A stretch of DNA of 64,000 nucleotides, taken from NCBI GenBank assembly GCA_016839805.1, contig JAEOTO010000032.1:1-64000 (forward strand), given 5' to 3'. This document shows positions 21,738 through 63,755 of the stretch, in pieces. The first letter of the stretch is position 1. Every line of letters begins with the position of its first letter. The notes beneath the pieces were generated by a model. The model was not told the origin of the DNA and searched no databases. It saw only the letters and a list, made by a program, of their open reading frames with translations. The stretch comes from Candidatus Hermodarchaeota archaeon (GTDB lineage: Archaea > Asgardarchaeota > Hermodarchaeia > Hermodarchaeales > Hermodarchaeaceae). The translations under genes and the position numbers were made by a program.

Positions 21738-21860
21738 GTTTCGATTAAACACTTCGTGAGCTACCCCGTCTTTGCAGATGAGGTTTCCTGCTTCATCGTT
21801 TCAGCCAGTGCTGACAGCTCCACAGGCTCTTCCCGAGGCTCCCTCGGTGCCATGACGGAC
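21738..21860 (-). ncRNA. Predicted omegaRNA/right end of TnpB-1; scaffold ends ...GGGGTAGCTCAC (21756), guide GAAGTGTTTAATCGAAAC follows
   Basis: Hairpin plus TCAC terminus overlapping the stop codon is typical of IS200/605 right ends; 5' boundary approximate. Confidence 0.65.
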
Positions 21861-22975
21861 CGAAGTCCTATCATCTTGATATTTTTTGCAGCATTGATGT
21901 CCCGATCATGATGAGTTCTACATTCTGTGCAAACCCATTCACGATCTGCAATTTGAAGCGCGGTATTCTTGAATCCGCAAGTTGAACATAGCTTGCTAGT
22001 TGACTCAAAGCGTCCAATCTCGATTAAAGTCACGCCATGCATTTCGGCTTTATCTTTCAACATCCGAAGAAAGCTAGACCATGCCGCGTCTGAGATTTGT
22101 CTTGCCAGCTTTCTGTTACTCATCATACCTCGAACATTCAAACTCTCTACTATAATCGCTTGGTTCTCGCGAATTAGTCGTGTAGATAGTTTTTGTTGAA
22201 AGTCCATTCGCTGATTGGTAATGCGTTCGTAGCATTGAGCTAGCCTGTGTCTTGCCTTCTCTCGGTTTTTCGAGCCTTTCTTCTTTTTGCTTAACCTTTG
22301 GTGTAGACAGCGTAACCTTTTGAGCGCATGCTGAATCGGTCTGGGATTTCCGATTTTCTCACCAGTGGATAGTGTAGCATAGGAAGTGAGTCCGACATCA
22401 ATTCCAACTGAACCCTGTGTGGTGACCAAGCTCTTCTCAGGAGGTTGTTTCCCATCCTCTACAACGATACAAATGAAGAACTTACCCGTGTTAGTAGAAA
22501 CGATTATACATTCTTTCGGATTGCCCGTGAACCTTCGATGGAAGACGGCCTTTACTTTCCCAATTTTAGGAAGACGCACTCTTCGAGCTTCAAAGTCAAC
22601 CTTAAAATTAGGGACAACAAAGGACTGACGATGAGCTTTTCTCCTCTTGAACTTAGGATATCCAGGGTTCTCACCAAGCTTTACTCGCCGAAAGAAGTGT
22701 TGATATGCTAGAACTACCCGCTTAACAGCATGTATAAGAGACTGCGAGTAGGCTTCCTTCAGAAAAAGATTGGCTTGTTTCAGACTTGTGAGTAAATAGT
22801 TTAATTCGTACCAGCTGAGACATTTACCATCAGCCTCATAGGCATGTTTCTTCCTTTCGAGAGCCCAATTATAGACGAACCGACAAGCATCGATATTTTT
22901 TCGAATTTGTTCACGCTGAACCTTATTCGGGTATAGGCGATACCGGTAGGTCCGCAGCATATAATTACGTTCCAC
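21761..22975 (-). CDS. tnpB: TnpB, IS200/IS605 type, with no tnpA nearby
   Basis: YRYRLYP N-terminus, GYPKFK, RuvC GIDVG / VESL / DRDINAA, CxxC..CxxC zinc finger. Confidence 0.95.
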   Translation of the reverse strand: MERNYMLRTYRYRLYPNKVQREQIRKNIDACRFVYNWALERKKHAYEADGKCLSWYELNYLLTSLKQANLFLKEAYSQSLIHAVKRVVLAYQHFFRRVKLGENPGYPKFKRRKAHRQSFVVPNFKVDFEARRVRLPKIGKVKAVFHRRFTGNPKECIIVSTNTGKFFICIVVEDGKQPPEKSLVTTQGSVGIDVGLTSYATLSTGEKIGNPRPIQHALKRLRCLHQRLSKKKKGSKNREKARHRLAQCYERITNQRMDFQQKLSTRLIRENQAIIVESLNVRGMMSNRKLARQISDAAWSSFLRMLKDKAEMHGVTLIEIGRFESTSKLCSTCGFKNTALQIADREWVCTECRTHHDRDINAAKNIKMIGLRSVMAPREPREEPVELSALAETMKQETSSAKTG

Positions 22976-23027
22976 AGGTAGCTATTTGAAGTCCTTGATT
23001 CGTACCTGCTTCACGCAAAAGGAAAAG

Positions 23028-23165
23028 TGGCGCCCGCTCCGGGATTCGAACCCGAGTCCTAGGAGATCCGCAAATCTATGAATCATCATAGACCGTTGAC
23101 AGTCCCAGATGATAAACCTGGCTTCGTGTTCGCGCCAAAATGGCAACGAAATACACTAAGCGGGC
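23028..23165 (-). tRNA. tRNA-Asp(GTC) with two introns (~14/15 and 37/38)
   Basis: GCCCGCT/AGCGGGC acceptor stem, CT-GTC-A loop; BHB-like junctions restore the cloverleaf. Confidence 0.88.
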
Positions 23166-23239
23166 CCTTGTGTTTTTGTGAGAATTACATTGCGTGATTT
23201 AAAGGTTCCTCTGGTCTGAGTTACTTGTTCGGAAGGATA

Positions 23240-23371
23240 TGGTCCCGGCGCCCGGATTTGAACCAGGAACCATCTGGTATCTGCGTTGGTTGACACCGGG
23301 TCATTGCCATATGGCTCAGGGTGCGGTGGTTACCTACAGCCAGACGCTCTACCAGGTTGAGCTACGCCGGG
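23240..23371 (-). tRNA. tRNA-Tyr(GTA) with canonical intron
   Basis: C1-G72 CCCGGCG/CGCCGGG acceptor stem, TCTGG-CT-GTA-G...A-CCAGA anticodon arm. Confidence 0.9.
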
Positions 23372-27282: not shown

Positions 27283-27464
27283 TGGTGCCGAGGGCGGGCG
27301 TTCCGCGAACTCCAACGGATTTCGTTTCGAACCCGCGACCTCCAGATGTCTCCGGCGCCAGTCATCATAATATTCTGACCCTGGGGCAAAGCCCTATGAG
27401 TATCGCCCTAATATTCCAAGAATGGTTACTAGTCTGGCGCTCAACCAGGCTAAGCTACCTCGGC
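27283..27464 (-). tRNA. Elongator-type tRNA-Met(CAT) with three introns (30/31 at 27402-27433, 37/38, 59/60)
   Basis: GCCGAGG/CCTCGGC acceptor stem; removing three BHB-bounded inserts gives CCAGA-CT-CAT-AA-TCTGG and GCGGG-TTCGAAG-CCCGC. Confidence 0.85.
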
Positions 27465-27547
27465 AGGAGTTATCCTCAATTGGTTCCTTTTAAGCATTAT
27501 TCTACTTTCTCAACGTATTATCTAAACCCATTTCTAATGCAACAGAG

Positions 27548-27720
27548 AGACGCCCTATGAGTCTGGCCGTTGTCCGAAACCTATCCACTAAGACCTGCAA
27601 ACTTAGTAGTGTTCGGTTCCTGCATCATCGACGGGCACTGACCCGTAATAAGCCTGCAACCTCCCGTCTCAAGACAGGCGTTTTGTGTCTCCGACCAACT
27701 GGCGGCGACTAATTCTAAAT
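27548..27720 (-). ncRNA. Predicted omegaRNA of the IS607-type TnpB; scaffold ends ...GGTTTCGGACAACGG (27567), guide CCAGACTCATAGGGC follows
   Basis: IS607-like right end ending in AACGG just after the stop codon; 5' boundary approximate. Confidence 0.7.
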
Positions 27721-28798
27721 TAAGACTTGCATTCAGGTCACGGTCAATCACTAAACCACAATGTTCGCACGAAAAAAGGCGAGTAGATAAAGCCAGTTTA
27801 GATTTAATGTTACCACATTGAGAACATCGCTTTGAGGACGGAAAAAACCGAGGTGCAAAGATTAACTTGGATCCGTACCATTTCGTTTTATATTCGAGTT
27901 GACGACGAATCTCGGAAAAGCTCACATCTGAAAGAGCTTGGCTCAGAAATTTATTTTTAACCATTCCTTGAACATTTAGATCTTCAACAACGATTTGGCT
28001 GTGGTTCTTTGCCAAGTATGTCGTTAATTTGTGAAGACAGTCTATCCGAATGTTGCTTATACGCCAATGTAACCGACTCAGCCTGATAACGGCTTTTTGA
28101 CGATTCCTTGACCCTTTTTGTTTACGTGAAATCTGGCGAGATATACGCCTTAATTTTCGCATTTTTCTTGGAAGTGGACGTGGATTCTCAAAAACGGTTC
28201 CACAAGATAGTGTTGCTAAAGACTTGATTCCTAAATCAACACCAACTTTCGGACCTTTGATTAGTAATGGTTCTGGTCTCTCTTGTTCAACGGTGAAGCT
28301 GATAAACCAGCGATCTGCCTTTCTAGAAATTGTGGCAGAAAGTATTCGCCCCGAGACATTCGATTTTTCCTTCAGCCTTAATTGACCTAGCCGAGGAAGC
28401 TGAACTGATTTTTCAAATAATCTAATTGTACCCAGTAGTTTGAAACTATCATGACGTCCCTTCTTTTTGAACTTGGGAAATCCTACCTTCTTACCCTTCT
28501 TTCTCCCACGCCAGAAATTGGCAAAGGCTTTATGAAGGTCGCGAAGTGCCTCTTGAGGGGCACATTTGGACACTTCATACATCCAAGGATAATGGTATCT
28601 TTTTCTTCGATTCAGCTCACGGTGCTGTCGAAAATAATTCGTAAAACGATCCTTTCCTTTCTCTGAGTTAAAGCGTTTGATTCGTTCTTCCAATCCCCAG
28701 TTGTAAACAAATCGAGCGCAACCTGCGTGCTTCACAAGTAGTGTTCGCTGTCGGTTGTTTGGATCCAATTCGTACCGATATCCACGAAGAACTAGCAC
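27581..28798 (-). CDS. tnpB: TnpB, IS607 type, with no serine recombinase tnpA nearby
   Basis: YRYELDPN, SKCAPQEAL, GFPKFKKKG, RuvC GVDLG / VEDL / DRDLNAS, AASWSETQNAC tail. Confidence 0.93.
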   Translation of the reverse strand: MLVLRGYRYELDPNNRQRTLLVKHAGCARFVYNWGLEERIKRFNSEKGKDRFTNYFRQHRELNRRKRYHYPWMYEVSKCAPQEALRDLHKAFANFWRGRKKGKKVGFPKFKKKGRHDSFKLLGTIRLFEKSVQLPRLGQLRLKEKSNVSGRILSATISRKADRWFISFTVEQERPEPLLIKGPKVGVDLGIKSLATLSCGTVFENPRPLPRKMRKLRRISRQISRKQKGSRNRQKAVIRLSRLHWRISNIRIDCLHKLTTYLAKNHSQIVVEDLNVQGMVKNKFLSQALSDVSFSEIRRQLEYKTKWYGSKLIFAPRFFPSSKRCSQCGNIKSKLALSTRLFSCEHCGLVIDRDLNASLNLELVAASWSETQNACLETGGCRLITGQCPSMMQEPNTTKFAGLSG

Positions 28799-29029
28799 GT
28801 CTTTACTATCCCCAATATCTGTGGAACGCGTTTACCATCTGCACGCTAATTGCAAGTGTATAGTTTTTTAGAAAAAGTTGGTATATTATTCACAACAGAC
28901 CCGGTTGGAAAAGTGATGTCCCTAAGGGAAAAGCAATTACGCGAAGCATTTTTTAGCAACGAAATAACGTTGTCACGCCACTAAAGCGCGGGGGCGTGTC
29001 CATGGGTCAGCGCCCTCAATGACTAAGTG

Positions 29030-29140
29030 GCGGGGGTTTCTACAGTATCGTAGACCCCATAGCCAAGCTTGGTCAAAGGCGCAGGACTTAAGATCCTGTC
29101 TCGTAGGAGTTCCCGGGTTCGAAGCCCGGCCCCCGCACCA
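29030..29140 (+). tRNA. tRNA-Leu(TAA) with a 23-nt intron at position 8/9 (29038-29060)
   Basis: GCGGGGG/CCCCCGC acceptor stem, CAGGA-CT-TAA-GA-TCCTG, long variable arm; BHB GGGG/CCCC with GTT and ATA bulges. Confidence 0.88.
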
Positions 29141-56275: not shown

Positions 56276-59200
56276 TTAATCAAGAGTAAGTTGTGTTTGA
56301 CGTGTGGTTTGGCGCTGCGTTGCCTTTAATGCTTGTTCATCTTCGGGTTTGATAGCTCCACCGCATTGTTGTTTAATTGATTTGGCGATTTGAGCTCCAA
56401 TGGTTGGAATCGCTGCAAGTTGTGCGATGGGTGCATCTCGAATTCGATTCTGCGATATGAAGCCAGCTCGGAATAAGAATCGTGCGCGAACCCGACCGAT
56501 ACCTTGGAGCTCAACTAATTCAGTTAATTCACGTCTCACCCCGTATCTTAACCGTAGCTCAAGCTCTTCTAACTCCGGAATTACTTCTTTGTGATTAAAA
56601 ATTGGGGCTAGTTCACGACACGCATATAGGATCCAAGCTTGTGTATCTACTAGTCGAAGTAGGTCCCCCGAGCCGATTTTGAATTGGTTAATGAGTTGAT
56701 CTTCAGGGAGCTCTTCAACCCAAGCCTTTGCTAGAAGAGCCGTTTTCACTTCGGCAAGAAAGAATTCATAACGATCTCGGTGGTAACGCGGATCAGGAAC
56801 CGAGATTAAAAATTCGTCGATGTGTTCAATGACATAATCATGAAATCGCTCATCTTCTCCACGGCGGAGATAGAGGTTGGCCATATCAGGTGTGTGACAG
56901 ATTAAGTGTAAAAAGGAGACGTCTGTGGTTTGGTCCATGTTGTTTGAAGCTTTGGCAAGCCCATCGCGAATGATCACTGCAGACTTGGGATCGATGTACA
57001 ATTGTGAGGTTCGTCGACCAAAGGAAGTTGCGAATAATCGTTTATTTCGCTGTTCTAACAAAGCTTCATCCTTAAGGAATTTAACAATCAAGTCAATCAT
57101 GTATTCGACTTCGTCAGGGTCCCGTTGGTGACCGAAGAAGGTTTGTCGAATGAAGTTCATGATGCCTTCCTTATCAGAGGCATAATTCATTGCAATCGTT
57201 GAAAGGACATGACTGCGAAGTGCAGATTCGCTTGCAAGTTTGGAAGTTATACTCTCAGGATTTCCAAGGATGTAGTAATCGAGAAGAAAATCCCGTTCTC
57301 CTTCGTTCCGAGCCAAAAGAATTGCAGTGCCCTTTTTGTCGTATTTTGGTCGACCCGCGCGTCCAGCCATTTGTTTGTATTCTAAAACTGGAATGGGTTG
57401 GTAGCCTTCTATTCGGTCAAACCGTCGATATTCTTGGATAATTACCACACGCGCTGGAAGATTAACACCTGCCGAATTATGAACGATGAATCCGTTAGCT
57501 ACAAACATATGATCGTGGTTATTTGAAGGGGGCAGAACAACGTCAAATACTGTTGAAGCCGCGTTGACTGTTTTTATTTCTCGAATCTTATCCCAAAAAA
57601 TGTCGTTATCCAGATCTTTTGATCGCCAGTTTCCTCTCAGTGTTCTTTCTAATTCAGTCTGGCATAAAGGGCAATGACTCTTTCGATAAAAATTCGATAG
57701 GTCTTGATTCTTTACTAAATAGTTTGAATATATCCATTTTCCAATTTCATTGAGGCTCCAAAACCATTCCGTTTTGCTTCGTTTCCCAATCTTACGCCTG
57801 GAAATTAACTCATAATGATGGTTTAATCTAGTCTCAGGTTTCCTTGGTTTGAAGCTTAAGGCACTTTCAATCTCATTTGATCCTAATTCCCCTTTTTCAC
57901 CAAGAAGTTTAATTACCGCATACTTTTTCTTTCCCCATTCTTTTTGACTCTTTGAACGACCAAAAAATAGTGATTTGAAAATTCGATAATCGCAGCTAGG
58001 ACAAGCGATGTATAAGACGTTTTTTTGTATCTTAGAAACTAGCTTTTGTAAATCAGTAGCCTTTCTTTTGATTCCAAATCCTATGTACTTTTGAAAATCT
58101 AATATCGACTGATTTTGGCTAATTAGTAACTCAAAACTCGGTTTTGTTGCATACTCTTTTTGCGCATATCTCATTATTCCCTTTTTTCGCGACCTAAGCC
58201 GAGACACAATTCCAAAGCGCAGAAGTAATTTCTTTGATTGCATTATTAGTTCTTTTGAGGAATTGCCTAACCCAATTTCCTTTTCCTTTACGACGTACCC
58301 ATCAGTATCATAAAGACCACGCAGAAGAGCTGCGATGGATGAATTATCTGTTTTCATTAGTTTTGGATGGATGTATTTCTTATTTCCTTTCTCAACTCCA
58401 CAACGGACTAAAAATTCCCTAAACCACTTATTCTTCCCTAAAACTAGCTCCGGAATTCCATAGGTATTAATTCCTCTTCGAGTAGAGATAGAGAAGGCAT
58501 CACAGGTTTGCTTAACATGAGCAAGAATTTCATCACCTAACCCAACAATAGAAGGCGCGCCCTTGTACCTGATTACGCCCCCATCGCTTTCAGCCCCCGA
58601 ATGACCATCTCCTAACATTAAACCCAAAAAATATGAAAGGTCTAGAGTTATTTCGTAATCTTGCTTGGCAGTTTTATTATCAATCACAAAATCTCTCACA
58701 TAGCATGTGAAATGTTTTTGAAGTGACACCCTTCTCGCTGTGGCTAGTTTATCGTGTTTCTTAATCTCTTTAGCTGGAATAATTAATCGTTTGTTATCTC
58801 TTTTTACTAACATACGATGATTTTGAGTGATTTGTATATGATATCCTGATACAGATGAGACCTCAATGAGTGATTCAGAATTTTCCAAACTAACAATATC
58901 AGTCGCTTTTCCTGGAACAAGCCTGTTTTTTGATAGGACGTAGAGTTGATCTGTGTTTTTGAATTCCGTTACTTTAGTTTCTTCAAGTTCATGCCAAATT
59001 TCGGTGTTGGGACCTAAACAAAGGGTCGGAGTGGCGCATACTACTTTAATTAGATTGTTTCGAAATGCTTCTTCGATGAGTTTGCGTTCTGAATAACGTA
59101 ATCCAGCATGATGAAACGCTACTCCAGCCCGAATATTTCGGGCGAGGGCCTCAGATACCTGGGTGACTTCCCCTAAATGAAGCAGGTTTTCAGCGAGATC

Positions 59201-60085
59201 TCCTAATTGTTCTTGTTCACCTTTCTTGAGTCGAGGAGCAACGACAGAGCTTAGTTTCTGGGCGGTTCTTACTGCTGTACGGCGTGTGTTAAGAAATGCC
59301 AGAAGTTGCCCTTTTTTTCGAAGCACGCGACGTGTGATATCTCCGATAGGGAAGGTCGTTGAGGGTGAGTAGCTTTCCTCTCTGTCATCACCAAAGAGTA
59401 CTTTGCCCTCATAATAGACGCCTTCGCGGAGAGCAACTGGACGCCAATCACTTACTACTGAATCTCCGTTGAGCCATTCAGCTAGTTCTTCTGCATTATC
59501 CACAGTAGCACTTAGGGCCAGAATTTGGACCTTTGGAGCTATTTGGCGTAATCTCGCAAGTACAACTTCTAAGGTAGGACCACGCCCAGGATCATTAATG
59601 AGATGGACTTCGTCAGCAATGACTATTGCGATCTGAGACATCCACTTAGCACGGTGGCGAAGGAGTGAATCTGCACGTTCGTTTGTACATATCAATAGGT
59701 CATAGGTGCCATACTTTTCTTCAACAGTATCATAATCCCCAGTTGTGATTCCAACATTTACGCCCAGCTTCGAATATGATTGGAATTCTTCATACTTCTC
59801 TGAGGCAAGTGCCCGTAAAGGGCAAAGGTAGAGAGCCTTTCCCCCCTTTTCTAGTATTGATTTGAGCATACAGAATTCAGCGATGAGAGTTTTACCCGAA
59901 GCTGTTGGTATAGCTAAAACTACATTCTTCCCCTCAAGTATCCCCGTTTTGAGAGCTTCTTCTTGAGGAGGATACAAAGTAGAAATTCCTTTCTCCTGGA
60001 AGTATTCCTTGATACGGTTTTCTAAAGGTAAATCAGCAACCCGTTTAATCTCATTATCCCACCTAAGGCAATTAACTTCCAGCAA
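56276..60085 (-). CDS. hel308: Hel308 (Ski2-like) helicase containing an intein
   Basis: PTASGKT, DEVH, LSAT, FHHAGL, ATPTL-[intein]-SAGVNLPA, QMAGRAGR. Confidence 0.94.
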   Translation of the reverse strand: MLEVNCLRWDNEIKRVADLPLENRIKEYFQEKGISTLYPPQEEALKTGILEGKNVVLAIPTASGKTLIAEFCMLKSILEKGGKALYLCPLRALASEKYEEFQSYSKLGVNVGITTGDYDTVEEKYGTYDLLICTNERADSLLRHRAKWMSQIAIVIADEVHLINDPGRGPTLEVVLARLRQIAPKVQILALSATVDNAEELAEWLNGDSVVSDWRPVALREGVYYEGKVLFGDDREESYSPSTTFPIGDITRRVLRKKGQLLAFLNTRRTAVRTAQKLSSVVAPRLKKGEQEQLGDLAENLLHLGEVTQVSEALARNIRAGVAFHHAGLRYSERKLIEEAFRNNLIKVVCATPTLCLGPNTEIWHELEETKVTEFKNTDQLYVLSKNRLVPGKATDIVSLENSESLIEVSSVSGYHIQITQNHRMLVKRDNKRLIIPAKEIKKHDKLATARRVSLQKHFTCYVRDFVIDNKTAKQDYEITLDLSYFLGLMLGDGHSGAESDGGVIRYKGAPSIVGLGDEILAHVKQTCDAFSISTRRGINTYGIPELVLGKNKWFREFLVRCGVEKGNKKYIHPKLMKTDNSSIAALLRGLYDTDGYVVKEKEIGLGNSSKELIMQSKKLLLRFGIVSRLRSRKKGIMRYAQKEYATKPSFELLISQNQSILDFQKYIGFGIKRKATDLQKLVSKIQKNVLYIACPSCDYRIFKSLFFGRSKSQKEWGKKKYAVIKLLGEKGELGSNEIESALSFKPRKPETRLNHHYELISRRKIGKRSKTEWFWSLNEIGKWIYSNYLVKNQDLSNFYRKSHCPLCQTELERTLRGNWRSKDLDNDIFWDKIREIKTVNAASTVFDVVLPPSNNHDHMFVANGFIVHNSAGVNLPARVVIIQEYRRFDRIEGYQPIPVLEYKQMAGRAGRPKYDKKGTAILLARNEGERDFLLDYYILGNPESITSKLASESALRSHVLSTIAMNYASDKEGIMNFIRQTFFGHQRDPDEVEYMIDLIVKFLKDEALLEQRNKRLFATSFGRRTSQLYIDPKSAVIIRDGLAKASNNMDQTTDVSFLHLICHTPDMANLYLRRGEDERFHDYVIEHIDEFLISVPDPRYHRDRYEFFLAEVKTALLAKAWVEELPEDQLINQFKIGSGDLLRLVDTQAWILYACRELAPIFNHKEVIPELEELELRLRYGVRRELTELVELQGIGRVRARFLFRAGFISQNRIRDAPIAQLAAIPTIGAQIAKSIKQQCGGAIKPEDEQALKATQRQTTRQTQLTLD
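57476..59020 (-). mobile_element. Intein (515 aa) with LAGLIDADG homing endonuclease in Hel308
   Basis: Begins CLGPNTEI, ends FVANGFIVHN before Ser; LGLMLGDG and LRGLYDTDG motifs. Confidence 0.93.
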
Positions 60086-63000
60086 AGCGAAGAATTCCGG
60101 GTCGGGGTGAATAGATTTCTCCTTCTTTGACTAATTGATTTATGGCTTCTTGAACAAACGTCTCTGAGAGATTCGCGAGTTTTGCCCGTTCCATTAATTT
60201 CTCAATAGGCACGCCAGTAGGAGATTCTTTAGCGAGATCTCGAATCATCATCAAAATCGCTCGTAGTTTTTCACGCTGTGATCTGGGGCGGCCAATCATA
60301 ATATTATCAACATCATATTCTCCAGTTTCATGGTCGAAGCCAACCTGTTGGAGTGAAACTTGGACCAAACGAATCGCAGCCTGCGCATCCTCAACGATGA
60401 CTTTTTCCCGTAACGCCATTTTCGCATGGGCCTCAGCCAACCGAATTAGCGATTCCAGTTGACGGGCTGTAATTGGTACAGGTGCATTTTCCCGTTCGCC
60501 AGATTTTCGCATCCCAAGATAGAACTCCTTCACCACATTCAACGCCTCATCCGTTAGCTCAGGACTAATACTCCGACGCGCAAAGGCAATATACTTCCGA
60601 AGCAACTCACCCGGAATCGGCGGATCCTTCACACCGCCTCTTTGCTTATGCAACGCAATAATATGCTCCGCCGTCCGCTCATCCCTCTCCGATTCCGGCA
60701 AATCAGTCAACGTAAAAATCAGATCAAACCGCGACAAAAGCGTCACCGGCAAATTCACATTCTCCGCAAACGACCGCTCCGGCACATACCGCCCAAGATT
60801 CGGATTCGCCGCCGCCAAAATCGCCGTCCGCGCATTCAACGTCGCCACAATCCCCGCCTTGGCTATACTCACGGTATGTTGTTCCATCGATTCATGTATA
60901 GCCGTTCGATCTTGAGGACGCATCTTATCAAATTCATCAATACAGTTGTGCGTGATTAAGCCATCAGCAAGAAAGTTATGCGTTTTGGGGACGTAGAGAT
61001 CGTAGACTGGTCCGATGTAAGGTATTTCTTCGATTGACATTATTGGATCTAGGAAATAGTCTCGTTTCAGAAGATTATTGATTATTTCATGTTGGGATAA
61101 GGAGAGTTGGTTTTCTAAACGTGTTTGGATTTTTTGTAATTGTCCTCTACTTGGCGAATAACGTTGATGTTTATAGCTGTATATAGTACTCCAGAGCCCC
61201 TTCTTTATCAACATTGATGTATTCAGTTTTGAGATCTGAGTAGCTAGCTGTGCAACAGTCTTACTGGGGATTTTGTCACTTAAACTAGACAGCGTTCGTT
61301 TTGGCGAGGGGAGGGGTTTCACTTTTACACTAAAGGGTTTAATTGCAGAAAGTAATGCTTCAACATCTGTCCTAGCAGTTATTTGGATATGGATAACCCC
61401 ACGTCCCGGTTTAAGACGTCCATAGCAATCGAACCGTCTCAGGGCGAGAAGCAATGCTAGATTTTCACGCCGGTCATTAGAGCACTGAATATCAATATGA
61501 ACCGTATTATATTCAGAACTATTGCGGGTATCCCGTTTAATTTCGATACATCCATCAGAGTCTACAATTCCTGCAAGATATGCAGAAAGTGAGAGATCAG
61601 GCAACTTGTGAAGATTTGAAAGATGATCTTTTGTTAAGAAATTGAAGATGAGAGCAAGGAGGTTTGAATGAGCAGTTAATGTTAGAGAATTACTTAGAAC
61701 TATACGATCTTCGATTTTGTTTTTGGTTACACGTGGATAAATTCTTAGTGAACGATTTGAGAAAGTGGAATAAAATTCTTGTATGCGTTTGATTTGGGCT
61801 TGATTCACAATAGATTGACGAATAGGTAATACTGATCGCCGATTATTAATTCGTTCCCAACTATCTCCGAACACAAACCCGAAGAAATAGGCCATTTCAG
61901 GTGTAATTGTTGAGACTTTTAGCCGATCACCCTTATGTTTCCGTCCGAAGGATAAATTACGTTTCTTCCAATCTTCAAGAAGACCAAGGTATGCCAATAT
62001 TTCGCGTAATGAACTAACCTTCATTTGAGAACGGCCAGATAAAACATCTCTTCGTAACCCAAAGAACCGGTTTATGCTCGCAAGAGATGGAAAGTCACAC
62101 AAAAGTGCATCCCGTAATTCGGTTTTCTCAGATTTGTTAAGGCACACAATCCAATCATCTGGAATTATATCGAATATTTGAACTGGATTCTTATGCCCTG
62201 GCAATTTGAGAGGTGCGATTAGAGAGTCACCCGTTTTAAAGTTCTGTGCCATCTTCCAGTCTAGTGAAGCTCCATCTAATAGCATATGATCGGGCGTTAA
62301 TATTGTTTGAAATCCAGTTTCGGTCGTAATTTTTAGGAGTGCATCTGAACATTCTTTTTTGCGAATATAAGTCGACTTGCACTCAATTATGTCTAAACTT
62401 TTTGTAAGCGAAGGAACCTTGGCATCAATCTCCCCAATCATAACTTTTTTTCCATTCGATATGGCACTCTTGGGGGTAGTTGTTGTATAGGCTTCTTCTA
62501 TTGTCATTAATTGATTATTAATCAAGATACGAGAACTGGGATGAAGGCACGCGGTTCCGCGATCGGCGAGTACGAGGGCACCGGCTTCGAGGGCGAAGCC
62601 TTCGGTATCTGGATCTCGTAACACTGCGGCGGTTAACCCGGCTGCAGTGGAACCTTTACCTGATGTGTATAATCCGCGTGGAGCAATTTGGGCTACATAC
62701 TTGAGAAGTTGTGATTTTGCGGTTCCGGGGTCCCCTACGAGGAGGATGTTGGAGTCGCCGCGGATTTTGACGCCGTCGGCGAGGACTTTGCTGACGCCTC
62801 CGAATAGGAGGAGGCTGATTGCTTCTTTGATGTCGGTGAGGCCGTAGATGGAGGGGGCGATGGAGTTGACGAGTTTGCGGTGTACTAGGGGGTCTTTGGA
62901 GAGTTTGAGGATTTCTTTTTCTTCTTTGGGAGTGATTTCGACGCGGTCGGCTTCGCGTTCGGAGACGGCGATGTAGTTGGTGGCGAGGAAGACGCTAAAT

Positions 63001-63755
63001 GTGGGGGCTTTTCGGCGGGATCTTGCGGTGACGTCTTGGGTGGAGCGTAAGATGCCGACGACGCGGCAGGGGTCGCCTGGTCGTGCGGTGTCGACGATGT
63101 CATCTTGGAGAATGCAGTCGAGGGCGCGTGGGAGGGCTCCAGGGGGGAGTTCTTCGGGTTTTTCTTGGAGTCGGATTTTTTGCCAATCAACAAACTTGGA
63201 CCGTTCGGGTATGAGTTCAAATGGTCCTTTACTTCGGCAGGTGTCGTTAGGACAGGTTGTGGGGGTGACAAATTGGTTGCCTTGTGGAATGGGACCTATG
63301 AGGTCTTGGCATTGGCGGCATTTGAAGAGGCCTTCGACGAGAAGGGGTTTAACGTCACTAACTCGAGTTACTAATGCATCAACCATAATGAGTTGGCTGA
63401 TATTTTCTGCGCGAATGGTTCGTACGGAAACGCGATCAGGAACTTCTTTGAAGCGTGCGTGAAGTTTTTGCGTAATTGTAGTTTCATAGTAATCTGGATC
63501 AACGATGCGGAGTATTCGTTTAATGGCAGCTGAAGCTGCGTCTATTGCCTGTTGAGGTTTTTCTTTTGTAGCAGCAGCTAAATCAGGATCAAAAGTTAGA
63601 AGATGGTTGAAATCAACTGAGATGGAAACGAGTTTTTCAAGACTTAGTCGTGATATGGCATCGTGGTAAGGAGTTTCGCCTTCTTCGGTTTTATAGGATT
63701 TGAAAAATTCTTCAAAGCGGGTGATGTAATCAATTTCTTCAGTCACCAATTTCAA
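60072..63755 (-). CDS. mcm: MCM replicative helicase containing an intein
   Basis: DWQKIRLQE, SIAPSIYG, GDPGTAKSQLL, TA-[intein]-CIDEFDKM, SRFD, ITARQLE. Confidence 0.96.
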   Translation of the reverse strand: MKLVTEEIDYITRFEEFFKSYKTEEGETPYHDAISRLSLEKLVSISVDFNHLLTFDPDLAAATKEKPQQAIDAASAAIKRILRIVDPDYYETTITQKLHARFKEVPDRVSVRTIRAENISQLIMVDALVTRVSDVKPLLVEGLFKCRQCQDLIGPIPQGNQFVTPTTCPNDTCRSKGPFELIPERSKFVDWQKIRLQEKPEELPPGALPRALDCILQDDIVDTARPGDPCRVVGILRSTQDVTARSRRKAPTFSVFLATNYIAVSEREADRVEITPKEEKEILKLSKDPLVHRKLVNSIAPSIYGLTDIKEAISLLLFGGVSKVLADGVKIRGDSNILLVGDPGTAKSQLLKYVAQIAPRGLYTSGKGSTAAGLTAAVLRDPDTEGFALEAGALVLADRGTACLHPSSRILINNQLMTIEEAYTTTTPKSAISNGKKVMIGEIDAKVPSLTKSLDIIECKSTYIRKKECSDALLKITTETGFQTILTPDHMLLDGASLDWKMAQNFKTGDSLIAPLKLPGHKNPVQIFDIIPDDWIVCLNKSEKTELRDALLCDFPSLASINRFFGLRRDVLSGRSQMKVSSLREILAYLGLLEDWKKRNLSFGRKHKGDRLKVSTITPEMAYFFGFVFGDSWERINNRRSVLPIRQSIVNQAQIKRIQEFYSTFSNRSLRIYPRVTKNKIEDRIVLSNSLTLTAHSNLLALIFNFLTKDHLSNLHKLPDLSLSAYLAGIVDSDGCIEIKRDTRNSSEYNTVHIDIQCSNDRRENLALLLALRRFDCYGRLKPGRGVIHIQITARTDVEALLSAIKPFSVKVKPLPSPKRTLSSLSDKIPSKTVAQLATQISKLNTSMLIKKGLWSTIYSYKHQRYSPSRGQLQKIQTRLENQLSLSQHEIINNLLKRDYFLDPIMSIEEIPYIGPVYDLYVPKTHNFLADGLITHNCIDEFDKMRPQDRTAIHESMEQHTVSIAKAGIVATLNARTAILAAANPNLGRYVPERSFAENVNLPVTLLSRFDLIFTLTDLPESERDERTAEHIIALHKQRGGVKDPPIPGELLRKYIAFARRSISPELTDEALNVVKEFYLGMRKSGERENAPVPITARQLESLIRLAEAHAKMALREKVIVEDAQAAIRLVQVSLQQVGFDHETGEYDVDNIMIGRPRSQREKLRAILMMIRDLAKESPTGVPIEKLMERAKLANLSETFVQEAINQLVKEGEIYSPRPGILRFAGS
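60945..62549 (-). mobile_element. Intein (535 aa) with LAGLIDADG domain in MCM, just before Walker B
   Basis: Begins CLHPSSRI, ends FLADGLITHN before Cys; FGFVFGDS and LAGIVDSDG motifs. Confidence 0.93.

Follow-up and report, generated by a model that had tools for sequence, protein, structure and literature searches.

How might an intron at a non-canonical position be carried from one archaeal tRNA gene into another? The question is raised by a locus in a 64,000-nucleotide stretch of DNA from Candidatus Hermodarchaeota archaeon (assembly GCA_016839805.1, contig JAEOTO010000032.1, positions 1 to 64,000; hereafter “the window”). Here, a tnpB gene encoding a putative RNA-guided nuclease is followed by a 15-nt guide, and a tRNA-Met gene interrupted by three introns lies about 100 nt beyond the guide, on the same strand as tnpB. 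The guide corresponds to tRNA-Met positions 27–37, with the intron at position 30/31 removed, followed by 4 nt from the start of the canonical intron. We propose, at somewhat better than an even chance, that the locus reflects RNA-guided “collaborative homing” by TnpB with a conserved guide, directed at tRNA-Met alleles that lack the 30/31 intron. G000 denotes the genome of the window, and other G- and L-numbers denote related species representatives and loci. The cassette and the adjoining tRNA gene comprise the following features.

28799–28939, minus strand: left part of the cassette, with its left boundary by the promoter region of tRNA-Leu(TAA).
27581–28798, minus strand: tnpB open reading frame (ORF), 405 amino acids, GTG start, TAG stop; predicted ISDra2-like RNA-guided nuclease.
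27567–27709, minus strand: core of the omegaRNA scaffold, conserved and structured; it shares sequence with the 3′ end of tnpB and closes with GTTTCGGACAACGG.
27552–27566, minus strand: guide CCAGACTCATAGGGC, directly after the scaffold end.
27508–27551, minus strand: decayed tRNA-Met remnant after the guide, apparently what is left of an intron-less copy of the gene, with traces of the canonical intron such as ..TCAGAAAT...
27465–27507, minus strand: tRNA-Met promoter (GTAGAATAATGCTTAAAAGG) and cassette-type leader, from alignments.
27283–27464, minus strand: elongator-type tRNA-Met(CAT) with three introns and encoded CCA, from direct reading, orthologues, and folding.
27402–27433, minus strand: bulge–helix–bulge (BHB) intron at 30/31, 32 nt, from the minimum-free-energy fold.
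27348–27394, minus strand: canonical 37/38 intron, which holds a recombination breakpoint (27363/27356).
About 27299–27324, minus strand: third intron, in the T-loop, G013-like, with ambiguous exact splice positions.

The scaffold of the putative omegaRNA terminates in ...GGACAACGG; on the minus strand, GTTTCGGACAACGG occupies 27580–27567, directly after the tnpB stop codon (TAG, 27583–27581). Ten homologues with 66–88% protein identity are conserved through ACAAC(G/A)G and then diverge immediately, and because all of them diverge right after this motif, we place the start of the guide at 27566. The consensus fold of the scaffold, obtained from 10 aligned homologues, comprises 38 pairs, and compensatory changes are seen in 12 of these; no omegaRNA family in Rfam matches it. 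Among the four cassette copies available as DNA (that in the window and three from metagenomes, described later), the guide is identical at 15 of 15 positions and the 14-nt scaffold tail is likewise unchanged. Position 16 varies (G/A/A/T), and the approximately 45 nt of remnant after the guide are about 67% identical, with gaps, between copies. Of the four-fold degenerate sites in tnpB, 61% are invariant among the three intact ORFs, and 15 invariant neutral sites would be expected with P of about 6e-4. These numbers indicate that the first 15 nt of the tRNA-Met remnant are kept by selection as a guide. The likeness of the remnant to GGGC TTTGCCCCAGGG TCAGAATA of the tRNA-Met gene was judged by eye.

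The tRNA-Met gene with its three introns is missed by both ARAGORN and Rfam. It reads CCAG (27437–27434), the 32-nt intron, ACTCATA (27401–27395), and GGGC (27394–27391), the last being the start of the 37/38 intron. When the 30/31 intron is deleted, CCAG+ACTCATA+GGGC matches the guide at 15 of 15 positions (16 if the G before them is counted). In the resident gene only 7 nt match: the intron interrupts the match after 4 nt, or after 7 nt if the ACT repeat is included. The intron folds into a strict hBHBh′ motif (UGAG/CUCA, bulge AUA, CGCC/GGCG, bulge AGA, CUAGUA/UAUUAG), in which the symmetric cut sites of the predicted fold fall exactly at 30/31, giving the predicted spliced product CCAGACUCAUA. 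The helices covary in five other species; among these, the same motif folds in G003, G008, G001, and G014, with inner helices that are changed yet still paired. In the predicted orientation, the intron splits the target at the end proximal to the target-adjacent motif (TAM), which implies that it would give the resident gene self-immunity.

A search of 60 related species representatives showed that intron-less targets are real alleles. At the syntenic locus, tRNA-Leu(TAA) on the opposite strand is followed by tRNA-Met and then tRNA-Thr(GGT). Four congeners and every one of the four sister-genus species read exactly the 18-mer GCGCCAGACTCATAGGGC there, with no 30/31 intron; a fifth congener, with the ninth intron-less allele, has one mismatch to it. 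The sister-genus alleles continue with GT, which extends the guide match to 17 nt (CCAGACTCATAGGGCGT); the G013-type target reads GGTTGAGCG-CCAGACTCATAGGGCACTG. G013 is the sister species of G000 (rpoB 93.6% nucleotide identity; synonymous divergence, dS, 0.29), and its tRNA-Met allele is intron-less, with no tnpB at the locus. The cassette is found with none of the nine intron-minus alleles. The 2.3-Mb genome of the window itself has a single other near match to the guide, at 14 of 15 positions inside a coding region, for which the chance expectation is about 0.2. Chance does not explain the match between guide and tRNA-Met, because the own genome has only this one other match and GCGCCAGACTCATAGGGC is real in eight relatives. 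The near match itself (CCAGACTCATAAGGCGT, G000 C11:3601–3615, L002) has its mismatch at position 12 and agrees at the next two bases; it could be an off-target, though it is near chance expectation.

These results bear on several claims of an initial annotation that was made from the letters of the window. That annotation had located the guide directly after the right end, and the divergence of the homologues leads to the same start, at 27566. Its match of 15 or 16 nt only after removal of the 30/31 intron, against 7 nt in the resident gene, was found again on re-reading the window, and its notion of self-immunity agrees with a target that is predicted to be broken within the first bases of the match. 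It had further named as the target a DNA allele lacking only the 30/31 intron, which is what the exact alleles of eight relatives represent.

The nuclease appears intact and constrained. The 405-amino acid TnpB contains the Pfam domains HTH_OrfB_IS605, OrfB_IS605, and Cas12f1-like_TNB and aligns over its full length with ISDra2 TnpB (8h1j/8exa; E 4e-64). The hallmarks of OMEGA (IS200/IS605-type) nucleases are present, namely the RuvC D/E/D residues, a zinc-ribbon TNB, and an N-terminal HTH. The RuvC D, E, and D, which lie in GVDLGI, VVEDLN, and IDRDLN, align with the ISDra2 TnpB triad, so that the initial annotation was right to call them intact. Its assignment of the protein and element end to the IS607 type finds no support: the TnpB is ISDra2-like, and the resolvase is found in 0 of 19 family genomes. 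Relatives of the protein with a name come from Promethearchaeota, Hermod- and Thorarchaeota. With a dN/dS ratio of 0.12–0.21 against the metagenome copy, tnpB is under purifying selection, and intact 405-amino acid ORFs also occur in the cassette copies L103 and L104.

A transposase partner is nearly absent from the family. No tnpA ORF adjoins tnpB at the window locus, and the genome of the window (86.7% complete) gave no match to Y1 TnpA (PF01797) or to the serine-recombinase TnpA (Resolvase, PF00239), in line with the statement of the initial annotation that there is no tnpA. Across the 19 family genomes, Y1 TnpA was found in one and the resolvase in none; 12 of 14 control genomes were positive in the PF00239 search. 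By comparison, tnpB occurs in 15 of the 19, with up to 11 copies each, and the near-absence of TnpA means that the spread of these tnpB elements would need a TnpA-independent route. Several of the tnpB copies in G006 have in-frame TAG or TGA codons.

The cassette recurs outside the window. A metagenome scan for the right end plus guide, together with a protein search, yielded three contigs with cassette DNA (L082, L103, and L104); a fourth, 108-kb contig (P0004, JGI) has the same gene order and is known from gene order alone. The source metagenomes are ERZ23498358, ERZ23498360, JGI 3300042731, and JGI2171J19970, besides the sample of the window itself. Each copy is laid out as GCTTCGTG, left part, tnpB, GTTTCGGACAACGG, CCAGACTCATAGGGC, divergent stretch, promoter/leader, and intron-plus tRNA-Met, the resident gene being intron-plus in all four copies with DNA. 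Scanning the contigs of genomes for the right end plus guide gave one chance match, in a Marinobacter metagenome-assembled genome (MAG), and scanning metagenomes with the window's own leader sequence gave none. The left boundary lies directly after a conserved GCTTCG(C/T)G (28947–28940); similarity to the cassette-free G013 and G006 ends at 28938/28939, and similarity to L082 and L103 begins there. The cassette-type leader is like the one found in the sister genus and unlike the leaders of congeners.

The relationships of the copies point to lateral movement. The four copies differ at 12–15% of protein residues. The outer flanks and the 3′ part of tRNA-Met in L082 are 97–98% identical to G006, the representative genome of which lacks the cassette, and L103 comes from a third, unsampled host background. 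For tnpB, dS between G000 and L082 is 0.44; for rpoB, dS between G000 and G006 is about 2.9, which is saturated. These comparisons place the cassette at one and the same locus in three or more host backgrounds, and it is much younger than the hosts.

The window locus itself appears to be a recombinant. In an informative-site scan, based on sites that distinguish G013 from the L082 copy, the window is cassette-like from 27523 to 27363 (20 substitution sites and the intron, with 2 exceptions), sister-like from 27356 to 27273 (16 of 17 sites), and foreign again from 27264 onward. A second, parallel case accounts for the third block, in which tRNA-Thr(GGT) and a 450-amino acid TnpB-like gene are shared with G006. 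The first breakpoint falls between 27363 and 27356, 28–35 nt past the end of the guide match (27391), a place where one would expect repair to stop after a TAM-distal cut by TnpB. In G000, the recombinant tract runs from the cassette through the intron to 27363, a pattern consistent with co-conversion of nuclease gene and intron and also with plain recombination. An assembly chimera was considered as the source of the mosaic and judged unlikely, given the sister-like outer sides and middle and the presence of the cassette/tRNA-Met junction in four independent assemblies; in the 84-nt middle block, a chimera may still be the source. The homing-like spread suggested by the initial annotation fits what was found, namely the same locus in at least three backgrounds, a low tnpB dS, and a breakpoint beside the predicted cut.

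Collaborative homing would proceed as follows. DNA bearing the cassette would meet an intron-less tRNA-Met allele, and TnpB would be predicted to cut this allele near the start of the canonical intron, given a compatible TAM. TnpB cuts at the TAM-distal end of its target, as established for ISDra2. The carrier's own tRNA-Met would be shielded by its 30/31 intron. Homologous repair would then copy leftward through intron, leader, guide, and tnpB and end at the conserved promoter region of tRNA-Leu. On this best explanation of the data, the process spreads and maintains an intron that it did not itself create. We infer the cleavage of the intron-less allele, the compatible TAM, and the preference for cleavage-driven spread over plain recombination.

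Several observations weigh against homing by TnpB. Conserved tRNA genes flank the cassette on both sides, tRNA-Leu on one and tRNA-Met/Thr on the other, and could act as homology arms that permit ordinary homologous recombination without a cut. The tnpB of L082 (JGI2171J19970_10030496, around position 985) carries a 1-nt deletion that shifts the frame at codon 260. No common motif is seen in the left flanks of related copies (GCTTCGYG, ..GGGAGG, ..CATTT) or in the bases 5′ of three tRNA targets (TTGAGCG, GCTGGA, GGGGAG). The three-block mosaic is read from one MAG contig, on the assumption that G000, not G013, is the recombinant. Finally, G001, G003, G006, G008, and G014 carry a homologous intron at 30/31 with no tnpB upstream, and the intron persists, and perhaps spreads, without TnpB. 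Intron-plus alleles without tnpB would also be expected from short conversion tracts or from later loss or decay of tnpB. As to L082, the frame beyond codon 260 still has a dN/dS of about 0.2 and the tnpB of its close copy L104 is intact; the frameshift is either a recent inactivation or an assembly error. Attempts to derive a TAM from left flanks and empty sites (G013:C40 vs. G000 C13:17506–17511; G005, G006, G008) gave sites that were too diverged or inconsistent. The homology arms, the frameshifted copy, and the lack of a TAM motif definable from the flanks compared would suit a passive relic, in which the element landed in or beside a partial tRNA-Met copy, the 15-mer is old flank, and ordinary recombination moves the cassette without any contribution from TnpB; the sequence after the 15-mer indeed looks like a decayed tRNA-Met remnant. 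What a relic does not lead one to expect is a 15-nt segment that stays invariant in copies differing as much in protein as these do, while the adjoining remnant decays, with both protein and scaffold under purifying selection; it also needs no intron-plus resident gene, yet all four are intron-plus. We therefore regard a relic as unlikely, if worth keeping in mind. Guide anatomy and constraint would look the same as for homing if TnpB cut intron-less alleles that reach the host on DNA of relatives or arise when recombination removes the allele with intron and cassette, as an addiction or barrier device that keeps cassette and intron. Such retention and exclusion are in keeping with the established role of TnpB, which is to cut the transposon-free allele and restore the element (PMC13565253), and the frequent turnover of intron state among sisters implies frequent allele exchange. 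Since one cut would do both, retention is hard to separate from homing, but alone it leaves unexplained how the same locus came to be occupied in at least three backgrounds at a dS far below host divergence, and it strikes us as distinctly unlikely.

The initial annotation had gone further and proposed that cleavage by TnpB was the original gain of the 30/31 intron, in which case intron and tnpB should strictly occur together. G000 has both, its sister G013 has neither, and the conversion tract in G000 contains the intron. However, the five congeners with the intron but not tnpB contradict strict co-occurrence, and because of these five representatives we conclude that TnpB did not create the intron, which is homologous in them and diverged in sequence. 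The expectation for relatives is accordingly borne out in part: alleles lacking both intron and tnpB read as predicted, whereas five tnpB-minus alleles keep the intron. Moreover, the intron site lies at guide position 4/5, whereas the cut of TnpB is TAM-distal, as in ISDra2, and until there was an immune allele, no cassette carrying this guide could have persisted. On the rpoB tree, intron state differs within the sister pairs G000/G013, G006/G002, and G014/G012, and the 12 species scored require no fewer than four gains or losses; the intron is older than this cassette insertion and turns over rapidly. An origin of the intron by TnpB cleavage is, in our view, very improbable. Still closer to negligible is the chance that the guide serves defense, aimed at viruses or integrative elements that carry a tRNA-Met fragment as an attachment (att) site, e.g., GAGCGCCAGACTCATAGGGC, with the intron protecting the host. 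Archaeal mobile elements do often integrate into tRNA genes, but an IMG/VR scan for the 15-mer gave five matches, none in a tRNA context, and the match enters the host-specific canonical intron, which is unlikely to be present in a foreign att site.

Two contig ends coincide with this tRNA cluster: a contig of G005 (C13, L029) ends exactly inside the guide target, its first bases being AGGGCTTTGCC, and one of G007 (C123, L037) ends inside tRNA-Thr. Such breaks could stem from mixed intron-plus and intron-minus strains. In G004 and G010, too, contigs stop at the target or close to it.

Parallel arrangements are seen at other tRNA genes. In the window, a “type A” tRNA-Thr(GGT) (27269–27193, minus strand) is followed by the divergent 450-amino acid TnpB-like gene (27121–25769), a noncoding tail of about 200 nt, and TCGCCCGAGGCTCCA (25564–25550, minus strand). 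The “type B” tRNA-Thr allele of G013 and G002 has this last sequence as its 3′ end; beyond the 15-mer, each host's own downstream sequence begins. The same tRNA-Thr element is present in G006, G013 and G002 have type B and no element, and G005 has a hybrid tRNA-Thr that combines the two types. In G003:C43 (L055) and G010:C37 (L056), a 68%-identical TnpB lies between a full tRNA-Leu(TAG) gene and a diverged partial copy, an 89-nt 3′ part from the anticodon loop on, whose start coincides exactly with the element's right end. Compared with that guide, the resident full gene differs in its first bases, and the empty site (G000 C14:4094–4182) has a single tRNA-Leu(TAG) gene; no exact target of this guide was found in relatives, the best having 1 mismatch. 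A local repeat search of 30 family TnpB loci detected flank duplication only at the G003 and G010 tRNA-Leu loci and none at the 28 others. Guides made from tRNA scars thus seem recurrent here, not universal.

Other observations in and around the window concern further tnpB genes, tRNA genes, and inteins. In the region 21761–23371 (minus strand), a third tnpB encodes 404 amino acids and is 35% identical; some 55 nt separate its start from a tRNA with several introns, which ends near 23030 and itself follows tRNA-Tyr (23371–23240). The trailer motif ACTTTTCC after CCA recurs at the left part of the 405-amino acid cassette and of the G003 copy. For tRNA-Leu(TAA) (window 29060–29129, plus strand), Rfam recognizes positions 8–63 only, and an intron probably lies within the acceptor stem or close to it. 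Elsewhere on the contig (G000 C22:264781–264858), ARAGORN calls a tRNA with a CTA anticodon (“Pyl”). At 56276–63755 (minus strand), an MCM gene and an adjacent archaeal helicase gene contain one intein each, that of the helicase having a LAGLIDADG domain.

If collaborative homing holds for tRNA-Met, the locus offers a concrete, testable route by which non-canonical archaeal tRNA introns could spread. A 2026 census of Asgard tRNAs reported many recent intron gains, with no route and no association with mobile elements (10.64898/2026.10.13.758758, section 2.5). One may even speculate, tentatively, that TnpB-type nucleases guided by tRNA scars are a general force in the turnover of Asgard tRNA alleles, with BHB introns or compensated stem changes selected as immunity and carried into intron-less lineages by nuclease-triggered gene conversion. 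Such a force would explain many of the repeated gains on terminal branches, for which the route was left open (10.64898/2026.10.13.758758). Homing at the tRNA-Met locus would by itself widen the role of TnpB: besides restoring its own transposon, the nuclease would serve as a homing endonuclease that stands alone, needs no transposase, and targets an essential gene of its host, which could explain the persistence of many archaeal “solo” tnpB genes without TnpA. The path from TnpB to CRISPR-Cas12 is another context in which a naturally fixed guide is of interest. In our literature search, we came across no description of TnpB guides directed at tRNA alleles.

The closest precedent is the collaborative homing of F-CphI, a free-standing endonuclease encoded beside the intron-containing psbA of cyanophage S-PM2 (PMC6083498); trans-homing by T4 mobE is related (PMC2790892). 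As with F-CphI, the nuclease gene in the window stands beside, not inside, an intron-containing essential gene, and the sequence it is specific for in the intron-less allele extends across the point of intron insertion (here in silico, 15 of 15 nt vs. 7 nt). In both cases, the intron blocks, or here would block, self-cleavage, and co-conversion of nuclease gene and intron is expected. Unlike F-CphI, recognition in the window would be by a 15-nt RNA guide instead of protein, with cleavage as a prediction; the intron is of the BHB type, lies in a tRNA gene, and would be spliced by protein, whereas that of psbA is a self-splicing group I intron; and the host is a cellular archaeon, not a phage.

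OMEGA nucleases have themselves been viewed as homing endonucleases (PMC13565253), and the window system shares with the “transposon restorative homing” of ISDra2 and GstIS605 (PMC13565253) the protein fold and catalytic residues, a scaffold that overlaps the 3′ end of the gene, and a guide immediately 3′ of the right end. It would share as well the cutting of an element-free allele followed by recombination that copies the element. It differs from them in that element and genome lack TnpA, that the target is an allele of a neighboring essential gene about 115 bp away and not an excision joint, and that the guide is fixed across host lineages, not renewed at each insertion. In a passage of the same source, SegB and other Seg endonucleases of phage T4 are described as agents of intronless homing in a tRNA gene region (PMC13565253). 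Like these, the window system would be a free-standing nuclease that cuts the tRNA-region DNA of relatives and biases inheritance toward its own tRNA region, whereas the Seg enzymes recognize their sites by protein, act in phage coinfection, and involve no intron. Lastly, integration into archaeal tRNA genes leaves a full new tRNA copy, the element, and a partial old copy, as seen at tRNA-Thr and at tRNA-Leu(TAG) of G003 and G010, and the idea that introns guard tRNA genes from integration has its counterpart in an intron that would protect a tRNA target; unlike such integration, no integrase is present here, and the “element” in the window consists of a TnpB gene and a guide RNA only.

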